A stretch of DNA of 64,000 bases from Escherichia phage Ecwhy_1: the sequence record MH791411.1, one strand, 5' to 3'. Numbering within the stretch: position 1 is the first letter of the stretch; the number at the start of each line of letters is the position of its first letter. A program made the position numbers and the translations under genes. Shown here piece after piece: positions 19,818 to 51,810 of the stretch. The notes below the pieces were generated by a model. That model saw nothing but the letters and a program-made list of their open reading frames with translations, was not told the DNA's origin and did not search any database.

Positions 19818-22481
19818 TTATTGAGTCTTTTCAATACGAATAGGTACGTAAATGAAGTTGATAGACTTAGTAGGTTGGATTGCAATATCCATCCAAAGTT
19901 CGTTACGGTCAATACGTTCAGAAGTGTTGTTACTTTCGTCACAAACTACTGCGAAGTTATATAGACCTTGTTGTTGAACGATTTCAGCTAGGAAGCTATT
20001 CACTACACCACTGAATTCCTGACGAGTACTTGGAGTATTCAAACGGAATAGGAATGGTTCAGAGATGATTTCTAGTTGACGACGAATGTAAACAACCAAA
20101 CGAGCAACGTTAACACGGCTTAGTGCAGAGGTTTGGTTAGCAGATAGTGTTTTATCACCATATACTAGCAAGCCACGGTTAGGACGCATTGCAATTGGGT
20201 TAATGTTGTTGGTATACATCACGTCACGTTGACCTTGGTTGTATACTACTGGTTGATATTCACCTTCACTGTTAATGAAACCAGTACTTGCAGCGTTGGT
20301 TACAACACCACGAGTAGTACCAGCAGGTGGATACCACACATAACTAACACTATCACTGTACGCATAGGTACGCATTGCAACAGTACTGCCTGGAACTGCA
20401 ACTTCTTCACCATCAACGTTAGTACTTAAACACCAGCCCATGTACTGAGCAGCATAATCATATGCAGAAGTACGGCCTACTGAACCATTACTTGGTGCGT
20501 TGTTTGCGTTGGTAGCCCATTCTTGAACTGCACTACCGTTTCCGGTTGGGTTCAAACGAGCAGGTACATCAGTTACGATAAACGCTGTTTCTTTACGATC
20601 AGTGTTTAGGGTAATACATTCATCTAGAGTTTCTACATAACCAGGAACACAGATTAGGTTAAAGTTGATGAATTCAGAACGGATATCATCATTACCGATG
20701 ATTACAGCAGCTAGTGCTTCAACGATTAGTTTGCGTTGTGCTGCACGACCGAATAGACCTGCACCATCAAGACTAACACCACTAACAACTTGCCATTGAC
20801 CATTAACCATTTTCTTAACAACACCTTCGGTATTACCGAGGTCAATTGCAAGCATACCATTCTGATAAAGAGCAGCAGAAGCAACTTGTTCAGGGAAGTT
20901 AAAGTCAGCGAAAATCATACCGTTTAGAGTACTTTGGTCAGTATTGTCTAGTTTAACCCACTCACCATCAACGTTACGATAGAAATCATAACCATCAATT
21001 CCTTGAGATAGAGGGCGTACCCAAATTAGACGGTCTGCCGAAGGTTCATCAACTTGAACATATTTGTTATCTTCTTGTACTAGATCCCATTCGTCATTTG
21101 CAACATCTGCAATGTACATGGTAACAGTTAGGTTATCGGAATTACCGAAATCATACCAAATAGTACCGTCTTTAGCAATACTACGTGGAACAGAAGAGCT
21201 AACACGTAAGTTATTAACGTTAACTAGAGAATAGTTGTTACTATCTACAGTTAGTTTAGCTAGTTCATTCGCTGCAAAAATATCATCACCGCTTTGGGTA
21301 ACTTTAAAGCTATAACCTTTGGTGTTTGTAACTACCAAACCGCCATTAGATTCACGTTTGAATTTGAATCCATCATTGATAAGATCAGCACTAACATTTA
21401 GATTATCGATGATAGTTTGAGTATTAATTACGCCACCTTGTGGTACTGCAAGTACTTTAACAGATTTGTTTAGGTAAGCGAAAGTCAAATAACTATTTTC
21501 ACCAGCTTGCTCAATAACAGTTTCACCTAGTGGTACTGCTGGAGCACTAATTGCTGATAGTTTTGCACTTTGAATATAGAAAGAGAAACTCTTACTATCG
21601 TCATCAAAACGGCAAGCAATATAACTGTTGTTTAGTACACCACTCTTAGCTTCAACTTCTTGGAAAGAATTACCAGTATATGCTGGAACGATATTCCAAA
21701 CTTGAGTTAGAGATGCATAACGTTTTAGAACAAAGCGAGTGCCAAAATAGTTTGAACCATTTTGAGTATAACCATCACGAATCCATACGTTACCTTGTTC
21801 AACAGTTGAACCAACTGGAACTTTGTTGATTGGTGATAGATAAGTTTCAACCTGTACTAGACCAGATGCTGCACGTTTGTACATAAGCATTTGACCATTA
21901 CTTGGCTTATAACGTAGAACTAGATCATCAACGTTTAGACCAACTAGGCTAACATCGTCAACTTCTTCAGAACTTACGATGGTAACAGGCTTCAATTGCC
22001 AGTCATAGAAGCTGCTTGGGCTGTCTTTCTTAGCAACATAAGCTTCAATTTGTGATTGAGCAGCATCAAACCATAGAGTACCATTTGGTACTGGACCAGT
22101 TGGTGCAGTTGCACTTGGTGATAGTTGAGCTAAATCGATATCAGCACGAATAACATATGCACGGTTGGTGATGCCTAGATAAGAATACACAGCATGTAGA
22201 CCATATTCGTTTAGTTCGTCACCTTGAACAACTGAACCATTGTTCATTTGGAAAATTGGTGAGCCAAATGTATCTAGTGAGCTTTTCTGTGATGTTAGTA
22301 GCTGTAGTTTACCAGCGTTTGCTTTAGTGGTTCCCGCAGCGATTGCACTGCTACCAGGAACAAGTTTGTCTTCAGCAGTAGCGATTACAAATAGTGGTAC
22401 TGTGCCAGGAGCAGCAGCAGTACTCATACTTTCATCAGTTACTGAAATGGAAACGCCAGGTGAGAGTAGATCTCCTGCCAT
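19818..22481 (-). CDS. contractile tail sheath protein
   Basis: 887 aa; N-terminus MAGDLLSPGVSISV; C-terminal region (RVNVARLVVYIRRQ, VVCDESNNTSERIDRNEL, IQPTKSINFIYV) matches the conserved sheath C-terminal domain as I recall it from T4 gp18; GGAGGA RBS. Confidence 0.85.
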   Translation of the reverse strand: MAGDLLSPGVSISVTDESMSTAAAPGTVPLFVIATAEDKLVPGSSAIAAGTTKANAGKLQLLTSQKSSLDTFGSPIFQMNNGSVVQGDELNEYGLHAVYSYLGITNRAYVIRADIDLAQLSPSATAPTGPVPNGTLWFDAAQSQIEAYVAKKDSPSSFYDWQLKPVTIVSSEEVDDVSLVGLNVDDLVLRYKPSNGQMLMYKRAASGLVQVETYLSPINKVPVGSTVEQGNVWIRDGYTQNGSNYFGTRFVLKRYASLTQVWNIVPAYTGNSFQEVEAKSGVLNNSYIACRFDDDSKSFSFYIQSAKLSAISAPAVPLGETVIEQAGENSYLTFAYLNKSVKVLAVPQGGVINTQTIIDNLNVSADLINDGFKFKRESNGGLVVTNTKGYSFKVTQSGDDIFAANELAKLTVDSNNYSLVNVNNLRVSSSVPRSIAKDGTIWYDFGNSDNLTVTMYIADVANDEWDLVQEDNKYVQVDEPSADRLIWVRPLSQGIDGYDFYRNVDGEWVKLDNTDQSTLNGMIFADFNFPEQVASAALYQNGMLAIDLGNTEGVVKKMVNGQWQVVSGVSLDGAGLFGRAAQRKLIVEALAAVIIGNDDIRSEFINFNLICVPGYVETLDECITLNTDRKETAFIVTDVPARLNPTGNGSAVQEWATNANNAPSNGSVGRTSAYDYAAQYMGWCLSTNVDGEEVAVPGSTVAMRTYAYSDSVSYVWYPPAGTTRGVVTNAASTGFINSEGEYQPVVYNQGQRDVMYTNNINPIAMRPNRGLLVYGDKTLSANQTSALSRVNVARLVVYIRRQLEIISEPFLFRLNTPSTRQEFSGVVNSFLAEIVQQQGLYNFAVVCDESNNTSERIDRNELWMDIAIQPTKSINFIYVPIRIEKTQ

Positions 22482-22575
22482 ATTAAATCCTCCAAAAATA
22501 ATTGGTTATTCGAATTATATTCGTATAGTCTTATTTATTGAAGGATTTGAATGTCAAGTCCTAATTGTTTTAATT

Positions 22576-23202
22576 TCACTTATTGGCATAAATAACGCTC
22601 AATGCTTGTTGGTGCAACGCTTCAATTGTGCTATTATTTTGTACAATGATATCAGGATTATTGATACCAATCCACGCCCATTCAGATTCATGAACTGATT
22701 CTAACTCAATTGGTTTCATGCTAATATCACCTTTATTAAAAGATGCTGCTAAACCATACCAGTGTGGGAGGGTACGCTGAACTTCAATCACAATACCATT
22801 TAATGAACGAATCATTTTTAGTTCATTTGGAAATCGGCAGTCAGTAATGATAATATTCCCTTCAACAGATTGCATTGACTTCTCTAAGCTATGGACCCAA
22901 ATATCATTATGAAAGTACTTACGCAAAATATTAGTACCGTAATTCTGTAATACCCAACGAGGGGAAACATCATCACGCCCCAACTTCTCACACCAGTACT
23001 GGTCTGGCTCTTCACGGAGTTTACGACTTTCCTTAGTCGAACCCTCAAGCATTTCACGATCCCATCCAAAGATAGCAGCAACTGAATCTTTAAGATTAGT
23101 TGCAAATGACATTCTTGTGTAACCATTATTGATAAAAGTTTCACCAAAAGTATCTTTGCCACTACCGATAGTACCGTTAATTGCAATTATTTGTCTTTCC
23201 AT
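22576..23202 (-). CDS. deoxynucleoside monophosphate kinase (T4 gene 1-like)
   Basis: 208 aa; P-loop GTIGSGKDT, plus WVLQNYGTNILRKYF and IITDCRFPNE segments paralleling T4 dNMP kinase. Confidence 0.65.
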   Translation of the reverse strand: MERQIIAINGTIGSGKDTFGETFINNGYTRMSFATNLKDSVAAIFGWDREMLEGSTKESRKLREEPDQYWCEKLGRDDVSPRWVLQNYGTNILRKYFHNDIWVHSLEKSMQSVEGNIIITDCRFPNELKMIRSLNGIVIEVQRTLPHWYGLAASFNKGDISMKPIELESVHESEWAWIGINNPDIIVQNNSTIEALHQQALSVIYANK

Positions 23203-24420: not shown

Positions 24421-24639
24421 TTATTTGGAATTATACAAGCAATACAAGTATACCATAGGAGCAAAATGTTCGGTATCAACTAAGTATATTAACTGGGTGT
24501 CATATATACCGTACAAATCTCGAAATTTATCTCTGTACAGCAACAATGACTTATTGTTGTGTGGGTCAACCCAGTACTTTAAGTCATTGTAGTGCAACGT
24601 GTTATTACGGTAACCTGATAATATTTGTTTTTTAGCCAA
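24421..24639 (-). CDS. hypothetical small protein (non-ATG start?)
   Basis: 72-aa ORF whose first codon appears to be TTG with no clear RBS. Confidence 0.3.
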   Translation of the reverse strand: MAKKQILSGYRNNTLHYNDLKYWVDPHNNKSLLLYRDKFRDLYGIYDTQLIYLVDTEHFAPMVYLYCLYNSK

Positions 24640-25009
24640 CTTTTTTACAATTACTTAGTAAATGCATGATGGCATCAGCGGTAAATGGTCCCAGTACTAA
24701 AACTTCTTCTCCATTACCGAAGATACTCAATGGTACAGATTGTTGTCCTGCTAGATATTCGATTTGTTCTAATTCGAAAATGTCATCAGCAGCATAAACA
24801 ACCTGTTCCATTTCATTATCTTTAATCCATGACTGCCAATGTTCTTTAAACTGCTTCGCTTCGTATTCCAGTACATAGTTAGGTGATTCTGGATTGTACT
24901 GATGTAGCATTGTCATACCAGCCATAACCAGTTCTTTTGGTGATGGAGTAGAATCTTTCAGTACTACGATAGCTTGGATAGTTTTAACTTTAACGTTTTG
25001 AGCAGCCAT
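24632..25009 (-). CDS. hypothetical protein
   Basis: 125-aa ORF. Confidence 0.45.
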   Translation of the reverse strand: MAAQNVKVKTIQAIVVLKDSTPSPKELVMAGMTMLHQYNPESPNYVLEYEAKQFKEHWQSWIKDNEMEQVVYAADDIFELEQIEYLAGQQSVPLSIFGNGEEVLVLGPFTADAIMHLLSNCKKVG

Positions 25010-25021
25010 TAGATACCTCTA

Positions 25022-25330
25022 TTATAGAATGATTTTGTTATCAGGAACAATCAGTGCTGGTTTTTCTTCGATAGCCTTGATTGCTTCAACATAAGCTTCA
25101 ACTAGTGCAGGGTTTGCATCGCTGATGCTAATGATGTTGGATTTATAAAAAATAACGCCTTTTTCAGAACTAATGAATTCTAGATAATCACGTAGAATGA
25201 TTTCACCTTGTTCGTCAGTACCTAGCTGTGCTGGGTAGTTAACTACTACTGCTTCTGGTGCATCATTTTGTAGAATTGCTAGTACTGGGCCAACGCTGTT
25301 GATGTTTAGTAGTTTAACGGTCATAGTCAT
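25022..25330 (-). CDS. hypothetical protein
   Basis: Track start 25339 is TTG; the ATG at 25330 has an AAGGA RBS. Confidence 0.45.
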   Translation of the reverse strand: MTMTVKLLNINSVGPVLAILQNDAPEAVVVNYPAQLGTDEQGEIILRDYLEFISSEKGVIFYKSNIISISDANPALVEAYVEAIKAIEEKPALIVPDNKIIL

Positions 25331-25349
25331 TTTTGTCAAGTCCTTTTGT

Positions 25350-25829
25350 TTATTTTAGAATGTATAAGTGTTTTTCTGCATTAACCAGTCTGTGGTCAAT
25401 GATTTCTTTGATAACGTTCCAGTTACCACCGCCTAAATCGGCTCCAATTTTCGGGAAGTGTACATGGATCTCTTGTGGTTCATTTTTAATGAATTCATTC
25501 ATCGAGTTAAATGCAAGGTCAATCGCATCATAACTTACATACTTCTTACCATCATTACCATAATACTCTTGTGTAATGCAGTTTGCAATAATTAAGTTAT
25601 TATTTGGTGCTGCATAGACAACTTCACCCAATTTCAAACCATTCTGATTGGTATAACGTGTATGATACACATCATATGCCAATTGGTGACGCTTTCTTAA
25701 TTCTTTTGCAAAACCAGAACCCATCTTACCCTGAGCGTTACAACCATGAGCGATAATATGTAATGCAGTTTGATCAGTAGTAACAGTACTGAATAAATCA
25801 AACAGATTACCACAATGTTCATGTATCAT
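25350..25829 (-). CDS. macro-domain protein (ADP-ribose binding/processing)
   Basis: 159 aa; IIAHGCNAQGKMGSGFAKEL and HVHFPKIGADLGGGNW match the macro-domain Gly-rich ADP-ribose-binding loops; GGAGAA RBS. Confidence 0.7.
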   Translation of the reverse strand: MIHEHCGNLFDLFSTVTTDQTALHIIAHGCNAQGKMGSGFAKELRKRHQLAYDVYHTRYTNQNGLKLGEVVYAAPNNNLIIANCITQEYYGNDGKKYVSYDAIDLAFNSMNEFIKNEPQEIHVHFPKIGADLGGGNWNVIKEIIDHRLVNAEKHLYILK

Positions 25830-25839
25830 TATATTCTCC

Positions 25840-25869
25840 GAAAAGAAAGGACTCTGTAATCAGAGTCCT
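25840..25869 (-). terminator. rho-independent terminator
   Basis: Hairpin aggactctg-taat-cagagtcct (25848-25869); on the minus strand followed by a U-rich tract. Confidence 0.65.
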
Positions 25870-25880
25870 TAATTTATATT

Positions 25881-26138
25881 TTATTCTTCTTCACCGAATC
25901 GAATTTTTTTCAATTCTTTTCGTTGTTTGCGAGCAATGGTACTTTTGTGAAGTCTATTACCACGTTTTGTGTCTTTCGTAATGTACCATGAATCTTCTGG
26001 TGCATTATAATCACAATAACCATCTTCTGTAATCGTCCCTAAGAAAGCAGACTTTTTAGGAATGGATGTTTGAGCTTTAGCAGCGAATTGGCCTTTTGCT
26101 AATTGTTCACGAAAACTGAGCATAATAGTATCTCCCAA
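25881..26138 (-). CDS. hypothetical small basic protein
   Basis: 85-aa ORF, Lys/Arg-rich C-terminus. Confidence 0.45.
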   Translation of the reverse strand: MGDTIMLSFREQLAKGQFAAKAQTSIPKKSAFLGTITEDGYCDYNAPEDSWYITKDTKRGNRLHKSTIARKQRKELKKIRFGEEE

Positions 26139-26168
26139 ATTGTTACGAAGAACTTGTGTTCTTCATTA

Positions 26169-26411
26169 TTATTTAGGGTTGCTCGAAACCTCTACTGAAG
26201 CGATGAATGCCAAAATATCATCTTTACTGAAAGCTTCAATAATATAAGCAACCGCTTTATCGTACTGTTCTTTCTTAGTAGTGTATTCTTTCATTTTGTG
26301 AATTTTACGTTGTGCTTTAACTTTTGCAGCTTCCATATCAGGCATTTTAAATTCAACACCCAATGTGTCAGCTAAATGTTTTGCACGAGATGATACTTTA
26401 TCAATATTCAT
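26169..26411 (-). CDS. hypothetical small protein
   Basis: 80-aa ORF. Confidence 0.45.
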   Translation of the reverse strand: MNIDKVSSRAKHLADTLGVEFKMPDMEAAKVKAQRKIHKMKEYTTKKEQYDKAVAYIIEAFSKDDILAFIASVEVSSNPK

Positions 26412-26659
26412 TAATTCCAGCGACCTTCTTTAAGACCTTCAACGAAACCAGTACAGCCACCTGGAACGTAAACATCGTTTACGAAAATTTGTGGAACCTG
26501 TCGTACTGGCTCACCACATAGTTCAGATAGTTTAGCACCATCAATACCAGCGGTAACAATATCGATAAACTCCATATCAAATTTGTTATTTTCACATACT
26601 GCTTTAGCAGTGTCGCAGAATTTACAACCAGTAGTGCGACCATAAATTTTAACTTTCAT
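26411..26659 (-). CDS. glutaredoxin/thioredoxin-like protein (NrdC-like)
   Basis: 82 aa; CxxC active site (GCKFC) near the N-terminus and a C-terminal GG motif, typical small glutaredoxin layout. Confidence 0.7.
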   Translation of the reverse strand: MKVKIYGRTTGCKFCDTAKAVCENNKFDMEFIDIVTAGIDGAKLSELCGEPVRQVPQIFVNDVYVPGGCTGFVEGLKEGRWN

Positions 26660-27059
26660 TTCTTTTCCCTTTATTTCGTTGAAACATTGTAACAGCCTTT
26701 ATTATACTGTTACACATTCGTTCAGTCAAATACTTTTGACAATCTAGTACATCAATGTACATGAACTTATCCAATTCTGGGTGACTTCTACCATATCTGT
26801 TTGTGTAAGTACTTTTACACTCCAACTCTTCTGGTATAGGCTTATCTTTGGCTGTATAGAAAAATAAAACTAAACGTTTCCCCTTTCTATACGATACATC
26901 ACCAAGAAACAGAAGATCATCTTCATCGATTTCATATCCTGTCTCTTCGTAGCATTCACGTACAGCAGCCTCTTTAAATGTTTCTGTACCTTCAGTTTTA
27001 CCTTTAGGTAAGTCCCAGTGATTCTGTCCGTGTTGTATGCCCGATAAGTATCTGACCAT
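26649..27059 (-). CDS. Nudix hydrolase
   Basis: Complete Nudix box GKTEGTETFKEAAVRECYEETGY (Gx5Ex7REUxEExGU); track start 27062 is GTG, ATG at 27059. Confidence 0.75.
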   Translation of the reverse strand: MVRYLSGIQHGQNHWDLPKGKTEGTETFKEAAVRECYEETGYEIDEDDLLFLGDVSYRKGKRLVLFFYTAKDKPIPEELECKSTYTNRYGRSHPELDKFMYIDVLDCQKYLTERMCNSIIKAVTMFQRNKGKRNES

Positions 27060-27168
27060 CACGATAAAATATTATACCACAGCTATAACGCATAATCTTA
27101 TCTCTTTATCATCAAGTGATGTTCAGATACTAGTAATTATATCAGAAGATGTTAACTTGTCCCAGCTT

Positions 27169-28284
27169 TTAGAACATTTGCTTGATTGCTTCAATACGCA
27201 ATTCAGCAACAAAATCACGAATCTCCGATGTTTGGAGTTCACCATCTTTCACTAACTGCTGAATATCAGGTAATTCAACATCAGTATAACGATCATAAAC
27301 TTTAATAATCAAATCTTCAAGTTCAGAATCAATTTCTTTGTTCAAAATGAAGTTTTCCAGTACTTTGTAAAGGAAATCTTCACCACCATTGTTTTTGATA
27401 TTCATATCCAGTAAGATTTGTCCCATTTCAACTGGGGTCTTCTTACGGAAGGTTTTAATATCTTCACGGAAACGCTTGATGTAATTACTAAACTTAACGT
27501 ACTTAACTGGAACCTTAATGGAACCGTTAAGTACTGAATCATTATTTACTTCTTCATTTTCAAGAAGTACTGTCCATAAGAAATATGGTTTATATTCTTC
27601 TGTACAATTTGCAGCGATAGAATCAATTAATTCCAGACGTTTCTTGGTAACTGGAACTGTAGTAAATGCCTTTTCGTAATAACCAAATTGTACCAGAGTT
27701 TTGATAAACTTGGAAGGGTTTTCTTCAGAAAGTGCTTTTTCGAATTCAACAAAAACACGATCTGGAACTAGATGGTCTAGTTCACCAGTACTAACCATAT
27801 CTTTACACATTGTCATAGTATCATCATGGATTGTAAAGTCGGAGTAACGCGTAGCGAAACGGGCCAAACGTAGAACACGCAATGGATCTTCTTTAAAGTG
27901 TTCTGATACATGACGAAGTACTTTGTTCTTGATATCAGCTTTCCCGCCATAAGGGTCGATGTGAATCTGGAGTACTGGATCATATGCAATACTATTGATT
28001 GTGAGATCACGACGATATAGATCTTGTTCTAGTGTCACACCTTTTGTATTCACTTCGAAGCCACCATATCCAGTACCAGTTTTACGCTCAGTACGGGCTA
28101 ATGCGTGTTCATTACCTTCTGGACTTAGATATACAGGGAAATCCTTACCTACTTGCTTGTATCCAATACTTTGCAAGTATTTAATATCGGATTCGGTAGC
28201 ACCGACAATAACATAATCTTTGTCTTTTGCACGGATACCCATTAAACGGTCACGAACGTAGCCACCAACCAAATACTTTTTCAT
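27169..28284 (-). CDS. tRNA nucleotidyltransferase (CCA-adding enzyme / poly(A) polymerase family)
   Basis: 371 aa; N-terminal GGYVRDRLMG and DKDYVIVGAT match the class II CCA-adding/PAP head domain. Confidence 0.7.
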   Translation of the reverse strand: MKKYLVGGYVRDRLMGIRAKDKDYVIVGATESDIKYLQSIGYKQVGKDFPVYLSPEGNEHALARTERKTGTGYGGFEVNTKGVTLEQDLYRRDLTINSIAYDPVLQIHIDPYGGKADIKNKVLRHVSEHFKEDPLRVLRLARFATRYSDFTIHDDTMTMCKDMVSTGELDHLVPDRVFVEFEKALSEENPSKFIKTLVQFGYYEKAFTTVPVTKKRLELIDSIAANCTEEYKPYFLWTVLLENEEVNNDSVLNGSIKVPVKYVKFSNYIKRFREDIKTFRKKTPVEMGQILLDMNIKNNGGEDFLYKVLENFILNKEIDSELEDLIIKVYDRYTDVELPDIQQLVKDGELQTSEIRDFVAELRIEAIKQMF

Positions 28285-30361: not shown

Positions 30362-30694
30362 TTACTCTTCGTCTTCAGTCAAGTCTTCTTGAACTGGATG
30401 TTCGGGGTGGTTACGGCGATGCAATTTGATGCTTTTGTCTTTACCTAAGACAGTTTCCATTTTTTCAAATGAATCACCAATTGCTTTGTATAAATCTGCA
30501 TCATCGGCGGTGACAATCTTACCACCTGATGTTAAAGTTACGGAATATTGATTCTTATGCTCTTTCTTCACATGAACACCGATATAAAGTACTGAAGAAT
30601 CACTAAACTTCGTTAGTGCATTTGCTTCTGCATGAATCGCGTCATTGATTGCTGGAGTAATATCAACATTACCTTGGATAACTAAATCTAGCAT
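30362..30694 (-). CDS. hpf: ribosome hibernation promoting factor / RaiA-family protein
   Basis: 110 aa; aligns along its length with E. coli HPF as I recall it (ITG-N-V-ITxA near the N-terminus, a G-x-I-xA-x-DxYxAIDxxxxKL core, Lys-rich tail). Confidence 0.7.
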   Translation of the reverse strand: MLDLVIQGNVDITPAINDAIHAEANALTKFSDSSVLYIGVHVKKEHKNQYSVTLTSGGKIVTADDADLYKAIGDSFEKMETVLGKDKSIKLHRRNHPEHPVQEDLTEDEE

Positions 30695-30719: not shown

Positions 30720-31646
30720 TTAAAGATTACTAACTAACAATTCTGCACGGTTTCCTACTTGACGATACCATAGAGAATTCTTAATTTCTTTTTTGAACTT
30801 GTTATTATTTTGATTATCAACGCTTTTCCATAATTTATTGAAAGTATTTAACTTATCAACTCCTAATGTAAATGCCATCTCAAATAAAATTCGTTGTTGT
30901 TCAGCCGTAAGGTTTGTTGCATTTCTTTTCTTCAATAATAAAACTAAATCATTATTAGTTCGTTCCATGTCAGACAATAAAAGTTTATGTGCTTGTGACT
31001 TCGTAATACCATTACGATACTTACTTGCATCTGATTCTTTCTTTCCAAGATAATGTCCGTACCCAATAGTGAAGTTACCTTTTATATCACGATACGGATA
31101 AAATTTAGAATTTCGATATGGAACTCCAACTTTCCCACCAAGTAAACGTCGTTTGTTCTTGGACTGAAATTCAATAGAACCTTCAGCTTCTTTGATGTGA
31201 TTGACAATTTCTGGATCTTTATAATCAAACAGTACAGTCACATCTGGTAACAATACGTGCTTCAAATCCTCTTTTGTTGGGATAAAGATACCCTGAGAAG
31301 TATGAAGAGTTGCATTTAAGTTGATGTTCTTCAACAAAATGACATAATCTTCAATCTGTACATTTTTAGGTTTAAATTTCTGTGCAATAGAATAATAACT
31401 ATCACCAGGTTGAACCGTATAATGTTTCTCGCTGCTTGGAACTGCTTTTGGTACTGACACCTGTGGTAGTTCCTGCTTTTGAATTTGCGTAACTTGTGGT
31501 TTTAAATTATGCACCTGACTTTCGTCTAATGATGATGCACGATCACTTTGAGAAAAACCATAAAATCCAATCGCAGCGAATAGGGCTGATGAAACTAATA
31601 CGCCTACGGCAATTTTAGTTTTCAGTTCTTTTTTCGCTTTTTTCAA
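30720..31646 (-). CDS. endolysin: N-terminal TM/signal-anchor + LysM + T4-lysozyme-like (GH24) domain
   Basis: Hydrophobic segment KIAVGVLVSSALFAAIGFYGF; LysM (YTVQPGDSYYSIAQKF); lysozyme motifs GNFTIGYGH, RILFEMAFTLG, SLWYRQVGNRAELL. No in-frame ATG near the 5' end; probable TTG start at 31646 preceded by AAAGGAGG. Confidence 0.8.
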   Translation of the reverse strand: MKKAKKELKTKIAVGVLVSSALFAAIGFYGFSQSDRASSLDESQVHNLKPQVTQIQKQELPQVSVPKAVPSSEKHYTVQPGDSYYSIAQKFKPKNVQIEDYVILLKNINLNATLHTSQGIFIPTKEDLKHVLLPDVTVLFDYKDPEIVNHIKEAEGSIEFQSKNKRRLLGGKVGVPYRNSKFYPYRDIKGNFTIGYGHYLGKKESDASKYRNGITKSQAHKLLLSDMERTNNDLVLLLKKRNATNLTAEQQRILFEMAFTLGVDKLNTFNKLWKSVDNQNNNKFKKEIKNSLWYRQVGNRAELLVSNL

Positions 31647-31813
31647 AACGCCTCCTTTGTTGGTTGTTAACAATGAGCAATCACAAAGAGGGCAAAGAGG
31701 CCATTTGCAAAAGCCTCATTGGACTTTCTACAGTACTCAGTTGTTCTTTGGAACATTTAAGTAGTATAGCATACTTTTTAGTTATATCAAGACCTATTTA
31801 CCAAATAACCACA

Positions 31814-32224
31814 TTAATCGTAGTATGTTCTACCAATGGTGATGTGATATTTGAAATATTTAGATGCCAAACCCAGTTCATTACGAATATGTGCAATGAA
31901 ATCATCTTCAAACTCTATGATAAAGAATGACCCAGGTTTCTTATTGTCTTTTACTTCTTCGATGAAAGGATCGAACTTAATCTTAACTTTCATACCATCG
32001 TACTTTTTCCAGTACTCTGGATTTGGTGGCACTTCACCACGAACGATACTGACATGTGCTCCCCATTGTGGGTCTTTAATATCAATATGTAAGTCAGTTC
32101 TGATGAAGTACTGGTAGTATCGAACCAACTGTAATGGAAGTTGCAGTACTAACCAGAAGTCCTTCTTCTTTTTCATAGTGCCACGATCTGGATCATACAC
32201 CAGAGTTCCTTCCATTTCAATCAT
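31814..32224 (-). CDS. 2H-phosphoesterase-like protein (LigT/cyclic-phosphodiesterase fold)
   Basis: 136 aa with two H-x-[ST]-x motifs (AHVSIVRG and YHITIGRT) at the spacing expected for the 2H superfamily. Confidence 0.5.
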   Translation of the reverse strand: MIEMEGTLVYDPDRGTMKKKKDFWLVLQLPLQLVRYYQYFIRTDLHIDIKDPQWGAHVSIVRGEVPPNPEYWKKYDGMKVKIKFDPFIEEVKDNKKPGSFFIIEFEDDFIAHIRNELGLASKYFKYHITIGRTYYD

Positions 32225-32231: not shown

Positions 32232-32435
32232 CTATAAATTTACATATATATTTTTATTTTCAATACGAACATAAGTTTCTAAAACATCTTTCGGAATTTT
32301 ATTACTTGTTTTGTACCATGTAGTATTATCTACTAAAACAAAAGTTTCACCTTCAGTTTCACCAAATGTACTTAGTGCATAAATGAAGTAGTTTGGTGAT
32401 GCACTACAATAAACATCAGCATTAATTTCAATCAT
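32232..32435 (-). CDS. hypothetical small protein
   Basis: 67-aa ORF. Confidence 0.4.
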   Translation of the reverse strand: MIEINADVYCSASPNYFIYALSTFGETEGETFVLVDNTTWYKTSNKIPKDVLETYVRIENKNIYVNL

Positions 32436-32581
32436 ATTTTACACCACAATAAAGCTTAATACAACGAGTGTAATAAACACACCCACAATGGCGGTCATTT
32501 CAGGGTTAGCATCGTATGTATAACGGATGCACTTTAGAAAATCTTTACCAAACTTTTTTAGTCCATTCATATATTTTCCTT

Positions 32582-32938
32582 TCATTTCTTGTGTAAAGGG
32601 TCGGCACTTTCATAATAGATTGTATCATTGTTTCGCTCAATAGTAAAACTCTTTTGACACAACTCTTCAGCTAAACCCTTAGCATAGTTTAATACATCTC
32701 GGTTGAGATATACTTCTTCTTTTGGGAAGCGTGGGTACTGAATAATACGAGCACACATTCCACTTTCAAGACCACCCGTGTAGATGTATTCACACGGAAT
32801 CAATTGTACACAAAATCCAAGCTTGAATGCAAACTTTCGTGTGTACTCTCTTGCTGTTTGGATATCACCAGCAATATGAATATTCCAGTACTGTGTTTCA
32901 ACTGTACCTTTGTCGATGTATTTCATACTCATCTCCAA
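32582..32938 (-). CDS. hypothetical protein
   Basis: 118-aa ORF. Confidence 0.45.
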   Translation of the reverse strand: MEMSMKYIDKGTVETQYWNIHIAGDIQTAREYTRKFAFKLGFCVQLIPCEYIYTGGLESGMCARIIQYPRFPKEEVYLNRDVLNYAKGLAEELCQKSFTIERNNDTIYYESADPLHKK

Positions 32939-32955
32939 TTATAGCATAAAAAATC

Positions 32956-33351
32956 CTACTTGCCCAAATCTTCTATAATTCTTTTTATGATATCATTGTT
33001 TTCCAGACATAAAGTACTGAAATTTCTACCTGTTTTTTCATTGAGTTCATTAATCTCAAGCATAAGATAACCATAAGTGATATCTTGGACCCTACTTCGT
33101 TTTACCCTTGAGTACAGTCTGATGGGTACAGATACACGAGTATTCAAAAAGAATTCTGATAAATCATAACGATATACCAGGTATTCATTCTTGTAACGTT
33201 TACGACTGTACGATTCTAAACACTGTGGGAAACGTCTATCAAACATACTACTTCTTAGTTGAAGTGTGATTGGATCTAACTTATGCGAGAAATACTTTTT
33301 GATTATTTTATTAAATCTTGTTACATGTCGTTTACGCCATCTCATAATCAA
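32956..33351 (-). CDS. hypothetical basic protein
   Basis: 131-aa ORF, Arg/Lys-rich. Confidence 0.45.
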   Translation of the reverse strand: MIMRWRKRHVTRFNKIIKKYFSHKLDPITLQLRSSMFDRRFPQCLESYSRKRYKNEYLVYRYDLSEFFLNTRVSVPIRLYSRVKRSRVQDITYGYLMLEINELNEKTGRNFSTLCLENNDIIKRIIEDLGK

Positions 33352-33791
33352 ACCTTAAAAAATATAATAGGAAAGTATTTTGTTTCCGAATCTGAAATAC
33401 TGTTACAGTAATCTTTCAATTCATCATGGATAACATTCAAATGAATAGTAGGATAGTTCATAGGTTTCTGTACTGGGCCAGTGGCATATACGCAATCTGT
33501 TCTATCCCAACTTACATATTGGGTTGGGTAATTATCTTTAGTACGTTCTTCAATAATAATATTATATTCTGGTGTATTGAATATATACATATCACATTGT
33601 GAAATGTACTGAACATTAAAATCACCGTCAGTGAGATGGATCATGTTCCCATCGCAATATAAGCATGATGGTTCAGTGTATCCTAAAATTGAAGATAAAG
33701 TTCTGAAGTTTGCTCCTGGACCCAAATATACCAAATTCGTGTGTAAACAAATATCAATGAAACGTTTGAAGACTTCAGTTTCGTTATGCAT
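33348..33791 (-). CDS. hypothetical protein
   Basis: 147-aa ORF; start overlaps the downstream stop. Confidence 0.45.
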   Translation of the reverse strand: MHNETEVFKRFIDICLHTNLVYLGPGANFRTLSSILGYTEPSCLYCDGNMIHLTDGDFNVQYISQCDMYIFNTPEYNIIIEERTKDNYPTQYVSWDRTDCVYATGPVQKPMNYPTIHLNVIHDELKDYCNSISDSETKYFPIIFFKV

Positions 33792-41911: not shown

Positions 41912-43150
41912 TTATTTTTTACTGTACCATTGCATTTCACGGATATCTAATAGTACCTTCGTAGCCAACTTTATGTTTGGTCGCTTCGGTAGATGGGTCT
42001 TATGATACGCCACATTTCGGATGTAGTCAACCTTTTCGTTGAAATAATCCATAACTTCTTGATACAACCACTTCCCGTTACGAATGTCCATCAACATAGC
42101 AGCATCCGGTCGGTGAACTTGGATGATACCAGTTTCAAGTGCTTCCTGTGCTGTATTCAGCAGCCTGACTGTATGCATTGCGTGTTTACAATCATAACCG
42201 TGGTGTGATTCAAGAATAGCACGTTTGGCATTACGATTCTGCTTCCATTTGTGATAACTCTTACGGTTCTCACTATTTTCTTTGTATTCTTTTTCATTGA
42301 ATTTTACAATGAGTTCAGGACGAACTTTCAATTCTTCTGTAGTACGTTCTTTGTTGAAGTAACGTAGTGAACCATCAGCATTCACTGTACTTTCATTCGG
42401 GTTGATAATTACCCCAAAGATGTTTTCACCGTAATGGATTAGTTCATATCCAGAATTGTAATTCAATAAATTGAAATCACGATCTAATACTTTATCAGTA
42501 CTATAATTATGTACTAAACGTACAAAATGATATTGTTTCAATGCTTGTGTTGAAACTAATTGTAATGAAGTATCACGCATGTATTTTTCAAAATCAATTT
42601 TTGTAGCATTGAATGGGTGAAGATTGGATTTATTCAAACGGTCAACCAAATACTGCGGAAATGTATCATACATCCATGAAAGTACTTCGTCAACTGGATG
42701 TTCTTCTAAAATTTCATTTAGTTTACGTTCAGCAATTCGTTCCTTATCGAGCCAGCCGTGGTGATTAGACATACGCTTAACCTGATTGTATGCATATCCA
42801 CTGTATGAGTGTGCAATCTTTGAACTCAATAATTGCTGATTGAATGAGCGTAGATAGTCATAGATTTCAGTACTTTCTACGATGTGTTCCGGTTTAACCC
42901 ATAGTGATTCAAGAATGTTTGGGTTAGCTTCAGTATACAGACTTAAGTACTGATTGATTTCATAAAATTTAGTATCTTCTTCAGAAGTATCTGAAACTTC
43001 CTTAACATTAAAAAAAGGAGTTAGGATATATTCTTTGTTTGCAAGGAAGATACCACGATAATCTGTATCACTTTCTGGTGTGCTTGTGCCATACGCCTGT
43101 GAACCAGCTAAGTGTTTCACAATAGTTTGTTCTAGAAAATTGTTTTTCAT
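41912..43150 (-). CDS. Pol-beta-superfamily nucleotidyltransferase
   Basis: 412 aa; N-terminal GSQAYGTSTPESDTDYRGIF fits the GS-x(9-13)-DxD nucleotidyltransferase signature. Substrate unknown. Confidence 0.6.
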   Translation of the reverse strand: MKNNFLEQTIVKHLAGSQAYGTSTPESDTDYRGIFLANKEYILTPFFNVKEVSDTSEEDTKFYEINQYLSLYTEANPNILESLWVKPEHIVESTEIYDYLRSFNQQLLSSKIAHSYSGYAYNQVKRMSNHHGWLDKERIAERKLNEILEEHPVDEVLSWMYDTFPQYLVDRLNKSNLHPFNATKIDFEKYMRDTSLQLVSTQALKQYHFVRLVHNYSTDKVLDRDFNLLNYNSGYELIHYGENIFGVIINPNESTVNADGSLRYFNKERTTEELKVRPELIVKFNEKEYKENSENRKSYHKWKQNRNAKRAILESHHGYDCKHAMHTVRLLNTAQEALETGIIQVHRPDAAMLMDIRNGKWLYQEVMDYFNEKVDYIRNVAYHKTHLPKRPNIKLATKVLLDIREMQWYSKK

Positions 43151-43548
43151 AAGTAAATCGTTAACTCCTTTAGAAAACCATTATAGTATCGTTTAAAATC
43201 ATGATCCAGTACTTGATAGTCATTGTAACTAAATCCAAGATTGATGATGGTATCTTCTTGGAAGAATTTCTCTTCATTCATTACTTCGATGGGTTCGTAT
43301 TCTTTCCCACCTTTACATACTTTAGTAAAGAACATACCATCATTGTTAATTTCAACGTACATGAAATTATTTTCTGGATCTCGTGGACACACAATGTTTA
43401 GTGAACTTGTCCCATTGTTATTATATTCGTATGAAATAATATCAAAAGAATCGATGCCATAACATTTGGACTTTTCTTTGTCACCAAAGACTTTTCTATC
43501 TGTACTCATATTGCGTATAGTACTGTAGATATCATCGATTGTAGTCAT
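43147..43548 (-). CDS. hypothetical protein
   Basis: 133-aa ORF. Confidence 0.45.
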   Translation of the reverse strand: MTTIDDIYSTIRNMSTDRKVFGDKEKSKCYGIDSFDIISYEYNNNGTSSLNIVCPRDPENNFMYVEINNDGMFFTKVCKGGKEYEPIEVMNEEKFFQEDTIINLGFSYNDYQVLDHDFKRYYNGFLKELTIYL

Positions 43549-43550
43549 AA

Positions 43551-44060
43551 TTAACCACCGTACTTTGACTTATATGTTTCTAAAGATAAAGAAATGCGAT
43601 TTTGCTTTTTAATTCTTTCATCAATATCCTTTGAATTCTTAACACTTCTGTATACATCAGCTAATAAATTATAATCTTCTTTATTTGAGCTATGTAATGC
43701 CCAACCTATATCTGTTTTGATTCGAACATATGCTTTATTTGATGTGAAATAAAAATTGAATCCGTTAGACCCATCAAAAATATCATAAGTATTTACCCAA
43801 TCTCCATAAGGAAAACTCATTGGTACTGACTCATAATCAATGGTGATATCCGATAAATTTTTAGAACAGTACTTTACAAAGTGGTAAACAATCGGATCAC
43901 ATTTTGATAATTCGTATTTGTATTCAATGATAGTTTTTCTATTAGTATCATTGATGGCATATTCTTTTATCAATGGACTTTTTTTGATGATAAGAGTCCA
44001 TAGAAACGATTCTAATCCAGTTTCATCAACTTTTTCTTTCTTTTTGAAAAATGAAATCAT
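43551..44060 (-). CDS. hypothetical protein, tandem paralogue 3 of 3
   Basis: 169 aa; shares the N-terminal pattern T-x2-(D)R-x3-I/L-E-x-KY-x-LSK with the two upstream genes. Confidence 0.5.
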   Translation of the reverse strand: MISFFKKKEKVDETGLESFLWTLIIKKSPLIKEYAINDTNRKTIIEYKYELSKCDPIVYHFVKYCSKNLSDITIDYESVPMSFPYGDWVNTYDIFDGSNGFNFYFTSNKAYVRIKTDIGWALHSSNKEDYNLLADVYRSVKNSKDIDERIKKQNRISLSLETYKSKYGG

Positions 44061-44578
44061 TTATATAAACCCTTAATTTTCTGTCTATTATGTATATCAT
44101 TTTGCTGAATTTTCAAATTAGTAAGATTGTGTCTTACACCTTCAACGCCACGCATTATTTGTAACATAATTAGTGATTCGTCATATGTTAGAACATTGCT
44201 ATTATTATCGATATATACTTTCACTCCACTTTCAAGATAATCATTTTCTTTGGAGTTAAAGTTTCTAATAGCAAACTTAACGCCATTTGTTGCATCACTG
44301 AATACATATCGTTCCGCACCGTAGAATGTTTTTCCACGAAATAAACCGCCTTCTTCAAACTTCCAACGACTGGATTCATAATCATTAACGTAATCAATGA
44401 TTAATGGTAGCAAAGGGTGTTTGCTCAATTTATATTTTGCTTCTAACAGAACACGACGATCTTGATCTGTATTGATGATATCTTTAAGTGTGAAACTTTT
44501 TGATATAATTTTAAAGATAATTTCATGCCAAATTAAAGTACTGTTTTGTTTTCCAACTGGGCCAAAAAACATATTCAT
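44057..44578 (-). CDS. hypothetical protein, tandem paralogue 2 of 3
   Basis: 173 aa; TDQDRRVLLEAKYKLSK motif. Confidence 0.5.
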   Translation of the reverse strand: MNMFFGPVGKQNSTLIWHEIIFKIISKSFTLKDIINTDQDRRVLLEAKYKLSKHPLLPLIIDYVNDYESSRWKFEEGGLFRGKTFYGAERYVFSDATNGVKFAIRNFNSKENDYLESGVKVYIDNNSNVLTYDESLIMLQIMRGVEGVRHNLTNLKIQQNDIHNRQKIKGLYK

Positions 44579-44584
44579 TCCTCA

Positions 44585-45151
44585 TTAGTATAAATCAGTA
44601 ATGTCTTTGTATGCATTAATCTGTTTTTGTTGTAATGAAAGTTCATTGAGTTTAGTTACCATTTTATCTACACCAACACGTATATAGAAAATAATAAATG
44701 AATCTAACTTGCCTAGAGTAATTCTTGAACTGTAAGTTGAAAGTTTTCTTGCATAAACATAAATTTCTTCTTCACTTGGTAAACGTTTCTCAATCAGCAA
44801 GTTTTCCACACCATTCGGCTCATAATCAATCTCGAACTCTACGCCTATCACAGTATCTTGAATGATATCAGTATATGAACCACCGAAAAAAAACTCTCTT
44901 GGTTTGGTTCTCCAACGAGGACTAAATGGGTCAGATGCGTATTCTTTTACAAATTTGTAAAAGGACATTTTACTGAGCATATACTTCATCTCAATTAGTG
45001 CTTTGCGGTCATCATCAGTTTTAAACTCTGCTTTGAGCGATGGACTTTTACACAGTAACTTAACTAAATTGTTGTACATCTTTAATGTACGTTGGTCTTT
45101 CATTTCTTGGATTTTGTGACGCTTTGGTGGTGGTAGTAAAGATTTGACCAT
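44585..45151 (-). CDS. hypothetical protein, tandem paralogue 1 of 3
   Basis: 188 aa; TDDDRKALIEMKYMLSK motif. Confidence 0.5.
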   Translation of the reverse strand: MVKSLLPPPKRHKIQEMKDQRTLKMYNNLVKLLCKSPSLKAEFKTDDDRKALIEMKYMLSKMSFYKFVKEYASDPFSPRWRTKPREFFFGGSYTDIIQDTVIGVEFEIDYEPNGVENLLIEKRLPSEEEIYVYARKLSTYSSRITLGKLDSFIIFYIRVGVDKMVTKLNELSLQQKQINAYKDITDLY

Positions 45152-45221: not shown

Positions 45222-47951
45222 TTAATGCCAACGTGTACCAGAGCTTGAAGGAACACCAGTACTTGCGGGGATAGCAGAACCACGCTTGGTCGTACTAGGT
45301 CTGTATGTCAAGAATCGGGTTACCTTTTCAGTATCAATTGACGTAATACTCGTACTTCCAGTAACAATATCACCAACATATACGTTTGTCAATGTCTCAT
45401 CAAGAAGAGTTGTACTGATAACGTATGCCGCTTTTCTTGTGTTACGGTTCATTTGAATGTAAAGATAAAAAGTACTGTTAGCTGGGTTAGTTTTAATAGT
45501 ACTTAATTCTATGGTTTGAATCGCCAATCTATCAAACATACCACCAAGGAATACCGGAACTTCACGGGTGAAGTACACAGTGAAACCTTCAGCAACATCT
45601 TGTGAAACTACTACGATTTTATCTTGTACAGTTCCTGAACCATCAATCAACCCATCCATCTGTGCTGATGTTGTCCCAAAGAGACTAAACACTGCTTTAG
45701 TTTGATAATCTGAATCTTGAAGATGATAGTATCCAAATCCAACACCTGGTATAACTCCGTGCTGGAATGCATTGCCATTATCTATGTAGCTGGATGACAT
45801 AAATCGGTTAGATGTAATCAAACCATTCACTGTTTTAGCAATCATCAATTTGAATTGAGCATTACCAGGTTGTGAAAACTGATGAACTGCATCAACACCA
45901 ATATAACCAAAACCAGAATACTTAGCAACAGTTAGACCAGTACAGCGTTTCATATAGGCTTCGGTTACAATACCTGTTACAGAATTAAGTGTTTCGTATC
46001 TAGAACTCACCATAGACGCAGAACTAATATTGGTTCCTGAAACCGTGACATCAACTTCAGAATATATTGCATAACCTTGGTTATTTCCTAAGTTATATGC
46101 AGAAACCACCGCAATAGATTTTGAGAAAGAACTATCTGGTACATAATATAAAGCAATTTTACCAGAAAATGCTCCTACTATTCCAATATTAGCAAGTATT
46201 TCTTGTTTTAATGTTTCCAGAACATTATCACCAATTGTATAAGAACCATCAAATTCTAAAGTATCTGGGTTAAACAAACCACCACTTGTTTTGTATACAC
46301 CTTCAATGAATGATGTCCCATAACATTTAACTGAACCGTCAGTATCAATTAGTGAAATCATACCTGTATATTTGAAATCATCACCAAGACGAGTTCGGTT
46401 AGCTTGTGGTGCAAAACCATTAAGTGTTGTATTGTTTTGTACTGAATTGAACTGGAAGGTTGGATCAGTACCAATTTCAGAAAATACTGTATTGTTATAA
46501 CCATATGACTCATCTTCATATGTTCCAGAACATGCTAACAGTACTTTACGTTTATCAATAAAACGTGTTCCTAAAAGGTTTTCACCTACTGCACTACCAT
46601 ATGTTGGGGCAACGTTTACAAATTTAGAATTGTTCGCTTTGCGAGTACTGGCAACCCAACTATCATATGGTGTTCCTGTTACGTTATAAACCTGAATACC
46701 ATAGGTTTCAGAAGAACTCCAACGAGCACGTGTGCTGAATACTAAACCGTCATAGGTTTGGCATATAGAACCAACGTTACCTAATTGTGGAACACCTAAC
46801 TGTGTACCCATGAAGTTATTCATCTCAATGGCAAATGGGTTTGTTAGTGTGAATCCATCAACATCATTATATTCCGCTGCTATTGGTGCTCTACTACTTC
46901 CATCAATTGATAATGATTTAGAGTTGATAGTATAAACAAAACTAAAACCACTAGCATAAACAGTACTAATATATAGATTTGATACTAAACGGTTAGTTGG
47001 GAATAATGTAATTCTAATCTTTGATAAATCTGGACTTACGTTTGCTTGTATATTATAATCTGTATAATCTGAATATTCAACTCGTGTAACTGGTGAAGTG
47101 CATTCAAATAATGAATCACTACTAGTTCCAACTGAATATAATCTTTCATAAATTTTCAAATTATTAGCACTTGTGTAGTTAACACTTCTTAAGGTTTGAC
47201 CAGAAAAACCAGTAACCTTAGCAAAAGTACTCATAGTACCATCTTTAATACTACTTGTATTAACAGTATATAATGTTAAAGCCAAACCATAGTTTGCTAT
47301 AGTAGTGTCTTTGCACCACACAAATACTTTATCATTAACGATATGTGCATACAATGGTTTATCTGTACCAAATGATGTAGCAGCGATAGAAGCGTGAATA
47401 TGTGCAACTTCGTTAAATGTACCATTTGTTAAAGTGAAAATATAATTACTTGCACTAGATAGGCTAACTAGTAATTCATAACCATTCGTTCCGATGAACT
47501 GTTTAACATTTTCAGTACTTGGAAGAATTCTAGGATGATATTTTGATGTAGTACTGATAACACTACTTTGTGTTAGTGCATCAATATTACGCAAATCACG
47601 AATGAATGCATAGTAATATCCTTCAGTACTACCATTTGTACCAGCACGTAATACCACACCAGTACCATCATCTTCGACTATTGTTGGTTGCATACGGTAT
47701 ACATCTGAAAGCGACGTTGCCCCTTCGTATGAACCATTAACGTTTAATGGTAGATAATCCATTTCCCCTATACGGGAGATTGGTAACATATCAAGTATTT
47801 TTTGAACTTCTGATCTTTTATAAATTGGATAGTCAACAATACCTGTATTTGCGTCTGGTGCTGTACCATTAAAAGTACGCATAGCGTACTTTCCACCAAT
47901 TGCCAAATTTCCAAGTATAGCAGCACTACCAATGATGCGTTTGGATGACAT
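45222..47951 (-). CDS. tail fibre / receptor-binding protein, paralogue 1
   Basis: 909 aa; conserved N-terminal (LPISRIGEMDYLP) and C-terminal (TYRPSTTKRGSAIPASTG ... GTRWH) modules shared with 47968..48555 and 48568..51264; Asn/Ser/Thr/Gly-rich centre. Confidence 0.7.
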   Translation of the reverse strand: MSSKRIIGSAAILGNLAIGGKYAMRTFNGTAPDANTGIVDYPIYKRSEVQKILDMLPISRIGEMDYLPLNVNGSYEGATSLSDVYRMQPTIVEDDGTGVVLRAGTNGSTEGYYYAFIRDLRNIDALTQSSVISTTSKYHPRILPSTENVKQFIGTNGYELLVSLSSASNYIFTLTNGTFNEVAHIHASIAATSFGTDKPLYAHIVNDKVFVWCKDTTIANYGLALTLYTVNTSSIKDGTMSTFAKVTGFSGQTLRSVNYTSANNLKIYERLYSVGTSSDSLFECTSPVTRVEYSDYTDYNIQANVSPDLSKIRITLFPTNRLVSNLYISTVYASGFSFVYTINSKSLSIDGSSRAPIAAEYNDVDGFTLTNPFAIEMNNFMGTQLGVPQLGNVGSICQTYDGLVFSTRARWSSSETYGIQVYNVTGTPYDSWVASTRKANNSKFVNVAPTYGSAVGENLLGTRFIDKRKVLLACSGTYEDESYGYNNTVFSEIGTDPTFQFNSVQNNTTLNGFAPQANRTRLGDDFKYTGMISLIDTDGSVKCYGTSFIEGVYKTSGGLFNPDTLEFDGSYTIGDNVLETLKQEILANIGIVGAFSGKIALYYVPDSSFSKSIAVVSAYNLGNNQGYAIYSEVDVTVSGTNISSASMVSSRYETLNSVTGIVTEAYMKRCTGLTVAKYSGFGYIGVDAVHQFSQPGNAQFKLMIAKTVNGLITSNRFMSSSYIDNGNAFQHGVIPGVGFGYYHLQDSDYQTKAVFSLFGTTSAQMDGLIDGSGTVQDKIVVVSQDVAEGFTVYFTREVPVFLGGMFDRLAIQTIELSTIKTNPANSTFYLYIQMNRNTRKAAYVISTTLLDETLTNVYVGDIVTGSTSITSIDTEKVTRFLTYRPSTTKRGSAIPASTGVPSSSGTRWH

Positions 47952-51339: not shown

Positions 51340-51810
51340 TTAAAAGTCTTTATTTTTATATAAAATTCGTTGGTTATTTGAACCACGAAATGGTAATGTT
51401 AAATTCTTTTCTTCTGAAACAAATTTACCATCAACTAATACATCTAAGTACTGAAGAATGTCTTTAGCATGATTATTCATAATCTCTTCTAAAGTATATC
51501 CACTCCAGCACCAAATAGTTTTATTGGGATAAGTCTCTTTTACAATCTTACATAGTTCTAAAATTGTTTCTATGTTCTTTTTCATTAGAGGATCTCCACC
51601 AAGGAGGGATAATCCACTAACGTAAGGCTTACTGAGTTCAGCTAAAATTATATCAATTGTATCAGTACTGAACTCTTGTCCACTTCTATAATCCCATGCT
51701 TCTTCATTGAAGCATCCGTCACACCCATGACTGCACCCACTAACAAAAAGGGAGCATCTTACTCCCTCCCCATTAATAAGGTCGTCTTTAATTATCGTCT
51801 GGTAATTCAT
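51340..51810 (-). CDS. nrdG: anaerobic ribonucleotide reductase activating protein (radical SAM)
   Basis: 156 aa; Cx3Cx2C radical-SAM motif in SGCSHGCDGC near the N-terminus; downstream of nrdD. Confidence 0.85.
   Translation of the reverse strand: MNYQTIIKDDLINGEGVRCSLFVSGCSHGCDGCFNEEAWDYRSGQEFSTDTIDIILAELSKPYVSGLSLLGGDPLMKKNIETILELCKIVKETYPNKTIWCWSGYTLEEIMNNHAKDILQYLDVLVDGKFVSEEKNLTLPFRGSNNQRILYKNKDF

Follow-up and report, generated by a model that had tools for sequence, protein, structure and literature searches.

A stand-alone 2H-SAK phosphoesterase in an Asteriusvirus jumbo phage and its possible role in RNA repair

The window, by which we mean the whole 64-kb stretch of DNA that was analysed, comes from the roughly 350-kb genome of an Asteriusvirus, a jumbo phage that infects Escherichia coli and is of the PBECO4/121Q/phAPEC6 type. 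It contains a gene that encodes a genuine 2H phosphoesterase (Table 1; the 2H gene and the 2H protein in what follows), with a pair of catalytic motifs that is beyond chance. The gene is a previously unlabelled member of a known but biochemically uncharacterised family, Pfam PF22547 (2H-SAK). The function that we favour, at a probability of roughly one half, is that of an RNA or nucleotide 2′,3′-cyclic phosphodiesterase belonging to a phage RNA-repair module.

The 2H gene, its active site and its family

A 2-kb stretch around the 2H gene is 98.7% identical to phage TH47 and 89–98% identical to about 30 other records. These are records of Asteriusvirus, which stands among the Rak2-like giant myoviruses, and a nucleus-forming (Goslar-like) phage was dropped as the source. 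In TH47 the 2H gene occupies 338553–338960 and the last 1 kb of the window occupies 21597–22596; the window spans the ends of the TH47 record, hence one sequence is circularly permuted with respect to the other. Local blastn found no match in TH47 for the first 1 kb of the window.

The sequence-only reading had described a 136-residue protein in which the motifs AHVSIV and YHITIG stand at the right spacing for a 2H enzyme, and this description holds. The open reading frame is present, with an AGG Shine-Dalgarno-like triplet 6 nt 5′ of its ATG; the two motifs, both read from the reverse-complemented bases, occupy residues 56–61 and 126–131; and the two histidines are 70 residues apart, compared with 69 in T4 Acb1. 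The C-terminus follows 9 residues after H127, which is also the median length of the tail after the second histidine in the family. A search of the 352-kb TH47 genome for paired H-hydrophobic-[ST]-hydrophobic motifs 50–115 residues apart, covering ORFs of at least 80 residues, found such a pair in one ORF of 594, namely the 2H gene.

The catalytic tetrad is almost invariant in an alignment of 176 relatives that extends down to about 25% identity to the 2H protein: H57 and S/T59 are kept in all 176, and H127 and T/S129 in 173. The paired histidine motifs thus survive careful alignment, and their loss, against which the earlier reading had warned, did not occur. Five residues after the first histidine, 134 of 172 relatives have arginine, and at the same distance after the second histidine 133 of 172 have arginine or lysine; R62 and R114 of the 2H protein are also conserved. 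The structure predicted for the 2H protein is a 2H fold of high confidence, in which each histidine motif lies in a β-strand that follows a strand-helix unit. This is the layout of the duplicated half-domains of the 2H fold, and it bears out the fold that had been proposed. A near-invariant tetrad is the signature of an active enzyme, and the 2H protein is predicted most likely to be catalytically active and metal-independent.

The sequence-only reading had placed the gene in an early-type block; a promoter scan returned 19 candidates against 18.6 expected, which is chance level and therefore uninformative as to early or late expression. An ORF of 88 residues runs antisense to the 2H gene (31851–32117, plus strand), and similar antisense ORFs cluster in 19 loci from 8 lineages; it is probably a by-product of the conserved codons and no gene.

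Table 1. Coordinates of the features discussed in the text, in the window unless another record is named.
Feature	Coordinates	Strand	Evidence and position
Stand-alone 2H phosphoesterase gene (Pfam 2H-SAK, PHROG 12204)	31814..32224	minus	ATG-to-stop ORF, 136 aa
First catalytic motif, H57-V-S59-I-V-R62 (HxSxxR)	32039..32056	minus	predicted strand E56-62
Second catalytic motif, H127-I-T129-I-G-R132 (HxTxxR)	31829..31846	minus	predicted strand E126-132
LysM-lysozyme	30720-31673	minus	downstream of 2H gene
Ribosome hibernation factor homologue (sigma-54 modulation; Ribosomal_S30AE)	30362..30694	minus	Pfam 43.1 bits
CCA-adding tRNA nucleotidyltransferase	27169..28284	minus	PolyA_pol 69 bits, PolyA_pol_RNAbd; 3.5 kb downstream; presumed association
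Nudix hydrolase	26649..27062	minus	Pfam NUDIX 45.8 bits
Glutaredoxin	26411-26659	minus	downstream of 2H gene
Macro-like domain protein (weak call)	25350..25829	minus	Pfam Macro E 0.0031, 17.9 bits, below cut-off 22
PTH2-like, peptidyl-tRNA hydrolase 2-like (weak call)	24632..25009	minus	tblastn 33% identity, E 9e-17, to PF01981-annotated gene of locus L005
RlaP nucleotidyltransferase	41912..43150	minus	PF10127 E 4.5e-17; 9.7 kb upstream, same strand
Anaerobic ribonucleotide reductase NrdD and radical-SAM activase	51340-53955	minus	NrdD 557 bits
T4 polynucleotide kinase-phosphatase (PseT) and RNA ligase 1 (RnlA) homologues	TH47 MT446416.1 37057-39939		side by side

Taken alone, the 2H protein matches PF22547 with 23.4 bits (E 7.5e-5), over residues 90–136 only and below the gathering cut-off of 27. 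All 26 close relatives (49–90% identical) match the family at E ≤ 0.01, with a best E of 3.9e-10, as do 125 of 134 distant relatives, and most of the relatives found carry a precomputed PF22547 annotation. The only other 2H families of Pfam that are matched by these 134 relatives are LigT_PEase (14, best E 1.3e-4) and 2_5_RNA_ligase2 (8), and the 2H protein itself gave no match to LigT_PEase (PF02834). PHROG 12204, annotated as ‘unknown function’, aligns with the 2H protein from end to end (E 3e-65), and the UniRef name of the orthologue in Yersinia phage fHe-Yen9-04 is Swiss Army Knife 2H phosphoesterase domain-containing protein. By these profile matches the 2H protein belongs to 2H-SAK. The family name, which reportedly means ‘Swiss Army Knife’, is said to go back to Burroughs and Aravind in 2016. 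Set against that name, the 2H protein is a minimal stand-alone protein and not part of a multidomain repair protein.

A profile of the family retrieved 902 clusters at E ≤ 1e-3 from 1.8 billion representative proteins (clusters at 50% identity). Most are stand-alone proteins of 130–170 residues, and the members are concentrated in jumbo and T4-sized phages. No biochemistry on any 2H-SAK member was found in the literature searched, which did not take in the paper that defines the name; in so large a family, one enzyme assay would settle the function of many genes. Sequence searches of the PDB with the single protein, a close-family profile and a broad profile gave no 2H structure and only noise at E of at least 0.5, and NCBIfam has no model for the 2H protein nor for T4 Acb1.

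In the GenBank records the 2H gene is hypothetical or mislabelled. At 4797–5909 of phage fEgEco12 (PP777464.1; locus L001) the labels read ‘viral L protein’, which is the 2H orthologue, ‘nucleocapsid protein’ and ‘SAM hydrolase’. Pfam scans give ‘viral L protein’ no support, the gene being a 2H-SAK, and found no match for the ORF that corresponds to the ‘SAM hydrolase’ in the window; these names seem to be artefacts of annotation. In practical terms, about 35 jumbo-phage genomes gain an annotation: the gene that they list as ‘hypothetical’ or ‘viral L protein’ can be named a 2H-SAK phosphoesterase whose active site is intact.

Gene neighbourhoods in the window and in relatives

The 2H gene lies inside a long minus-strand block, with a thymidine kinase gene upstream of it. 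The Ribosomal_S30AE gene adjoins the lysozyme gene, an arrangement that is syntenic in Rak2-like jumbo phages. Further downstream, 24632–28284 holds a minus-strand run of tRNA and nucleotide genes, namely those for the CCA-adding enzyme, Nudix, glutaredoxin, Macro-like and PTH2-like proteins. The last two are weak calls; a representative of the BLAST family to which the Macro-like ORF belongs scores 23.8 bits, above the cut-off, and the PTH2-like ORF has no Pfam match by itself. On the upstream side, RlaP is an enzyme that adds 1–2 NMP to the 3′-OH of damaged RNA (2025 preprint, PMC12776372). Pfam matches were found neither for the four ORFs upstream of RlaP (43147–45151) nor, at E ≤ 0.001, for two minus-strand ORFs of about 900 residues each (45222–47951 and 48568–51264). 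Five small minus-strand ORFs (48–147 residues) fill 32232–33791, where two relatives (L009:6527–9748 and L005:2944–7814) carry a DraRnl-type ligase and DUF2828; the four of these five ORFs that were scanned gave no Pfam match. ARAGORN found no tRNA or tmRNA gene in the window, despite its tRNA-processing genes.

Roughly 15 kb beyond the right end of the window, TH47 carries homologues of PseT (32% identity, E 9e-39) and RnlA (37% identity, E 7e-58). Since the two adjoin, they amount to a tRNA repair pair of the T4 type, and the idea of a phage without any RNA ligase was rejected.

Relatives of 53–62% identity come from Xanthomonas phage XbC2 and from metagenomic contigs. There the next gene on the upstream side, 93–241 bp from the 2H gene, encodes a DUF2828/DUF7788 (TROVE-like) protein; YqeY follows downstream, and a PF09414 RNA ligase is encoded about 2–4 kb away. 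The same-strand block around the 2H gene comprises HPF, CCA-adding enzyme, Nudix, Grx, Macro-like, YqeY and PTH2. The PF09414 ligase is present across phages of the Rak2, GAP32, CBB and fHe-Yen9-04 types and absent from the Asteriusvirus records, and TH47 is without neighbouring ligase, DUF2828, YqeY, HAD and NADAR genes. The lineage of the window has lost the neighbouring ligase yet kept the 2H gene. The compact arrangement of ligase, TROVE-like protein and 2H enzyme in close relatives, beside genes for CCA-adding, Nudix, Macro, YqeY and PTH2 proteins, should be useful for work on phage RNA repair, and the natural gene-loss series, of which the window's lineage has lost part, could show which steps need which partners.

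We surveyed 80 viral loci, many of them on contigs of 200–600 kb, that were gathered with a narrower alignment, the broad one being too diverse. All ORFs were clustered and the loci were grouped by the identity of their 2H proteins (60%), which gave 30 lineages; single-linkage clustering of lineages was discarded, having merged 71 of 85 loci. The recurrent neighbours of 2H-SAK, leaving out a homing endonuclease and an antisense artefact, are Nudix (11 of the 30 lineages, within 10 kb), the CCA-adding enzyme (9, at a median distance of 2.5 kb), PTH2-like (8), Macro (7), YqeY (6), RNA ligase (5) and NADAR (5). Two unrelated lineages have RlaP no more than 2.5 kb from 2H-SAK. Five of the 30 lineages form one syntenic Rak2-like group. 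Outside this group, a partner from RNA repair or translation is found within 3 kb in 8 of 25 lineages and within 10 kb in 14 of 25. Chance would account for about 16% at 3 kb, a rough, inferred upper bound for eight single-copy genes randomly placed in 300 kb. Compared with this bound, 8 of 25 lineages amounts to a neighbourhood signal that is real but modest. The signal speaks for a role in RNA repair, yet its modest size outside the Rak2-like group, gauged by this bound in place of a proper genome-wide control, counts against that role.

One family member (P0041) is a fusion of 2H-SAK with YqeY (YqeY domain E 4e-17), and in four lineages that do not belong to the Rak2-like group a stand-alone YqeY gene is found 0.4–4 kb from 2H-SAK. 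Near 2H-SAK on a T4-like contig are YqeY and a gene for HD plus P-loop kinase. On the 3.3-kb contig that carries the fusion, the next gene (L002:2035–2244) matches Phage_T7_Gp5_9. T7 gp5.9 is an inhibitor of RecBCD, and this match is the only known anti-defence-type neighbour that was seen.

A proposed role in RNA repair and its alternatives

What is shown is a 2H fold with a conserved tetrad, the family to which it belongs and its gene contexts; from these we infer the following substrate, product and order of steps for an RNA-repair enzyme. Metal-independent host defence RNases, such as anticodon nucleases and HEPN toxins, leave 2′,3′-cyclic phosphate ends on tRNA or rRNA. In the 2H enzyme both histidines would serve as general acid and base, with the Ser/Thr residues and flanking arginines holding the phosphate, and the cyclic phosphate would be opened and the end then dephosphorylated. 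An RNA ligase could then seal the dephosphorylated end, or RlaP and the CCA-adding enzyme could extend it again. The partners in phages of the XbC2, GAP32 and fHe-Yen9-04 types would be the adjoining DraRnl-type ligase and the TROVE-like protein, whereas in the lineage of the window, where the ligase is gone, the 2H enzyme would have to work with other enzymes of the phage or the host.

In favour of this RNA-repair reading are the near-invariant tetrad, the predicted 2H fold, the ThpR-like second motif, the ligase and TROVE-like genes close to the 2H gene in relatives, the same-strand block, the YqeY fusion and the cross-matches to LigT_PEase and 2_5_RNA_ligase2. Its main weakness is that the adjacent ligase has been lost in this lineage and a Pnkp is already there. 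As TH47 has a T4-type Pnkp, which resolves cyclic phosphates, together with Rnl1, the 2H enzyme is not obviously needed for heal-and-seal, and given the PseT homologue it would be an additional activity and not the sole healing one. If the product carried a 2′-phosphate, host RtcB could not seal it directly, which also counts against RNA repair. Aravind-lab surveys predict that the 2H enzymes of ‘group 2.2’ jumbo phages are 2′,3′-cyclic phosphate specialists for RNA repair (PMC7824862, PMC9503650). Iyer et al. 2017 describe solo phage 2H domains as generally without RNA ligase association and favour RNase or anti-signal roles (PMC5512222).

The recurrence of Macro and Nudix genes bears on a second possibility, namely a cyclic phosphodiesterase of small molecules whose products would pass to the Macro and Nudix proteins. 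Its substrate would be Appr>p (ADP-ribose 1″,2″-cyclic phosphate), a by-product of the removal of 2′-phosphates by KptA/Tpt1, or free 2′,3′-cNMPs from RNA cleavage. We regard this as improbable. The Macro call in the window is below the Pfam cut-off, and most such co-occurrences fall within one syntenic phage group. Moreover, RNA itself is indicated by the genes that lie close by in relatives, which encode an RNA ligase and a TROVE-like protein that binds RNA, and by YqeY, the fusion partner, which is tRNA-related.

RNA is also the substrate in trimming of the Usb1 kind, in which 3′ ends are shortened and a cyclic phosphate is left, and 2′,5′-oligonucleotides are degraded by viral ns2/VP3. A role of either kind appears very unlikely: the matches are weak and at the level of the superfamily only, with no sequence-profile link to either family, and no specific contextual support was found.

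The gene losses in the window's lineage can be read in another way. Acb1 was not found in TH47, for which the whole genome was examined, and 2H-SAK could have arisen independently as a second family of phosphodiesterases with which phages evade immunity. The PBECO4/TH47 lineage, being without Acb1, would have shed the ligase, TROVE-like and YqeY genes and kept the 2H enzyme to destroy a defence or stress signal; candidates for this signal would be a cyclic oligonucleotide, a 2′,3′-cNMP alarm or an ADP-ribose-derived messenger. We think it doubtful that this is so; if it were, about 900 clusters in large phages would be unrecognised anti-defence genes.

Comparison with Acb1 and with enzymes that heal RNA ends

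Acb1-type anti-defence nucleases had been the other suggestion of the sequence-only reading, and as far as family is concerned this suggestion fails. Acb1 (T4 gp57B and Erwinia phage FBB1; PF23474) and the 2H protein are in separate Pfam families with no cross-match in either direction. The 2H protein has no match to the Acb1 profile at E ≤ 10, whereas T4 Acb1 itself scores 202.7 bits; the 25 families that the 134 relatives match most often do not include PF23474; and an Acb1 HMM built in this analysis did not retrieve the 2H protein at E ≤ 1. Acb1 has an HxT/HxT tetrad (H44, T46, H113 and T115), which is common to the whole superfamily (PMC9117128), and the HxS/HxT tetrad of the 2H protein is a likeness of this superfamily-wide kind. 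A C-terminal lid (residues 145–152) closes over cGAMP in Acb1, and the bases stack on conserved aromatics that include Y12, W74 and F107 (PMC9117128). The lid is absent from the 2H protein, which has a tail of 9 residues against 39 in T4 Acb1, and five residues after each histidine T4 Acb1 has tyrosine where the 2H protein has arginine. The conserved aromatics of 2H-SAK are Y10, W24, Y36, Y37, W54 and W72, with no reliable residue-level alignment to those of Acb1. The gene neighbourhood also differs, T4 Acb1 adjoining 57A and gene 1, and fHe-Yen9-04 is annotated, on database labels, with a separate Acb1 of 148 residues in addition to its 2H-SAK orthologue of 140 residues. Judged by sequence, the 2H protein is not a member of the Acb1 family.

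Structure and profile comparisons nevertheless make Acb1 nominally the closest, which counts against the RNA-repair reading. With hhalign, a profile against single sequences gave 1.1% for ThpR and 0.6% for T4 Acb1, values that are uninformative. Profile–profile alignment gave 17–47% for Acb1, 1–2% for ThpR and 1.9% for the Acb1-versus-ThpR control, the Acb1 matches being short (29–38 columns) and pairing the wrong halves, the C-lobe of the 2H protein with the N-lobe of Acb1. No sequence in the ThpR alignment was less than 73% identical, which makes the comparison uneven, and it was not used to assign a nearest family. The alternative to be weighed here is an Acb1-like anti-defence nuclease that would do the work of Acb1 while belonging to a different 2H family. 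Such an enzyme would bind cyclic di- or trinucleotides or other nucleotide signals (of CBASS, type III CRISPR or similar systems) and cut their 3′–5′ bond via a 2′,3′-cyclic intermediate, with the result that abortive infection is silenced. We consider this rather unlikely; should the 2H enzyme degrade immune signals, it would represent a new anti-defence family.

For the RNA-repair reading, the systems to compare are those that act on 2′,3′-cyclic phosphate ends. The CPD domain of Trl1 (fungi and plants), yeast Cpd1 and the Arabidopsis CPDase are larger, eukaryotic proteins, and a sequence-level relationship between them and the 2H protein was not detected. PseT together with RNA ligase 1 of T4 is the classical phage answer to tRNA anticodon nucleases, and by database annotation PseT also opens 2′,3′-cyclic phosphates. 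Its fold and chemistry are unrelated to those of 2H enzymes, being those of a HAD-type phosphatase with a covalent Asp intermediate (PMC3592404).

E. coli ThpR (LigT) is an RNA 2′,3′-cyclic phosphodiesterase that heals ends and is no ligase (PMC4201822). This bears on the term ‘RNA-repair ligase’ used in the sequence-only reading: the RNA-repair setting is supported by the gene neighbourhoods and the YqeY fusion, but ‘ligase’ has to be given up, LigT-type proteins being end-healing cyclic phosphodiesterases, and the interpretation as a whole is thus partly supported. The 2H protein is 40 residues shorter than ThpR and has a tighter spacing of the two histidines (70 compared with 82 residues). 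Motif 1 of ThpR is HxTxxF with a base-stacking Phe48, whereas the 2H protein has R62 at that place. The likeness between the two lies in motif 2, where the 2H protein also has HxTxxR (H127…R132); in ThpR the arginine at the +5 position of this motif, Arg130, binds the phosphate and is essential (PMC4201822).
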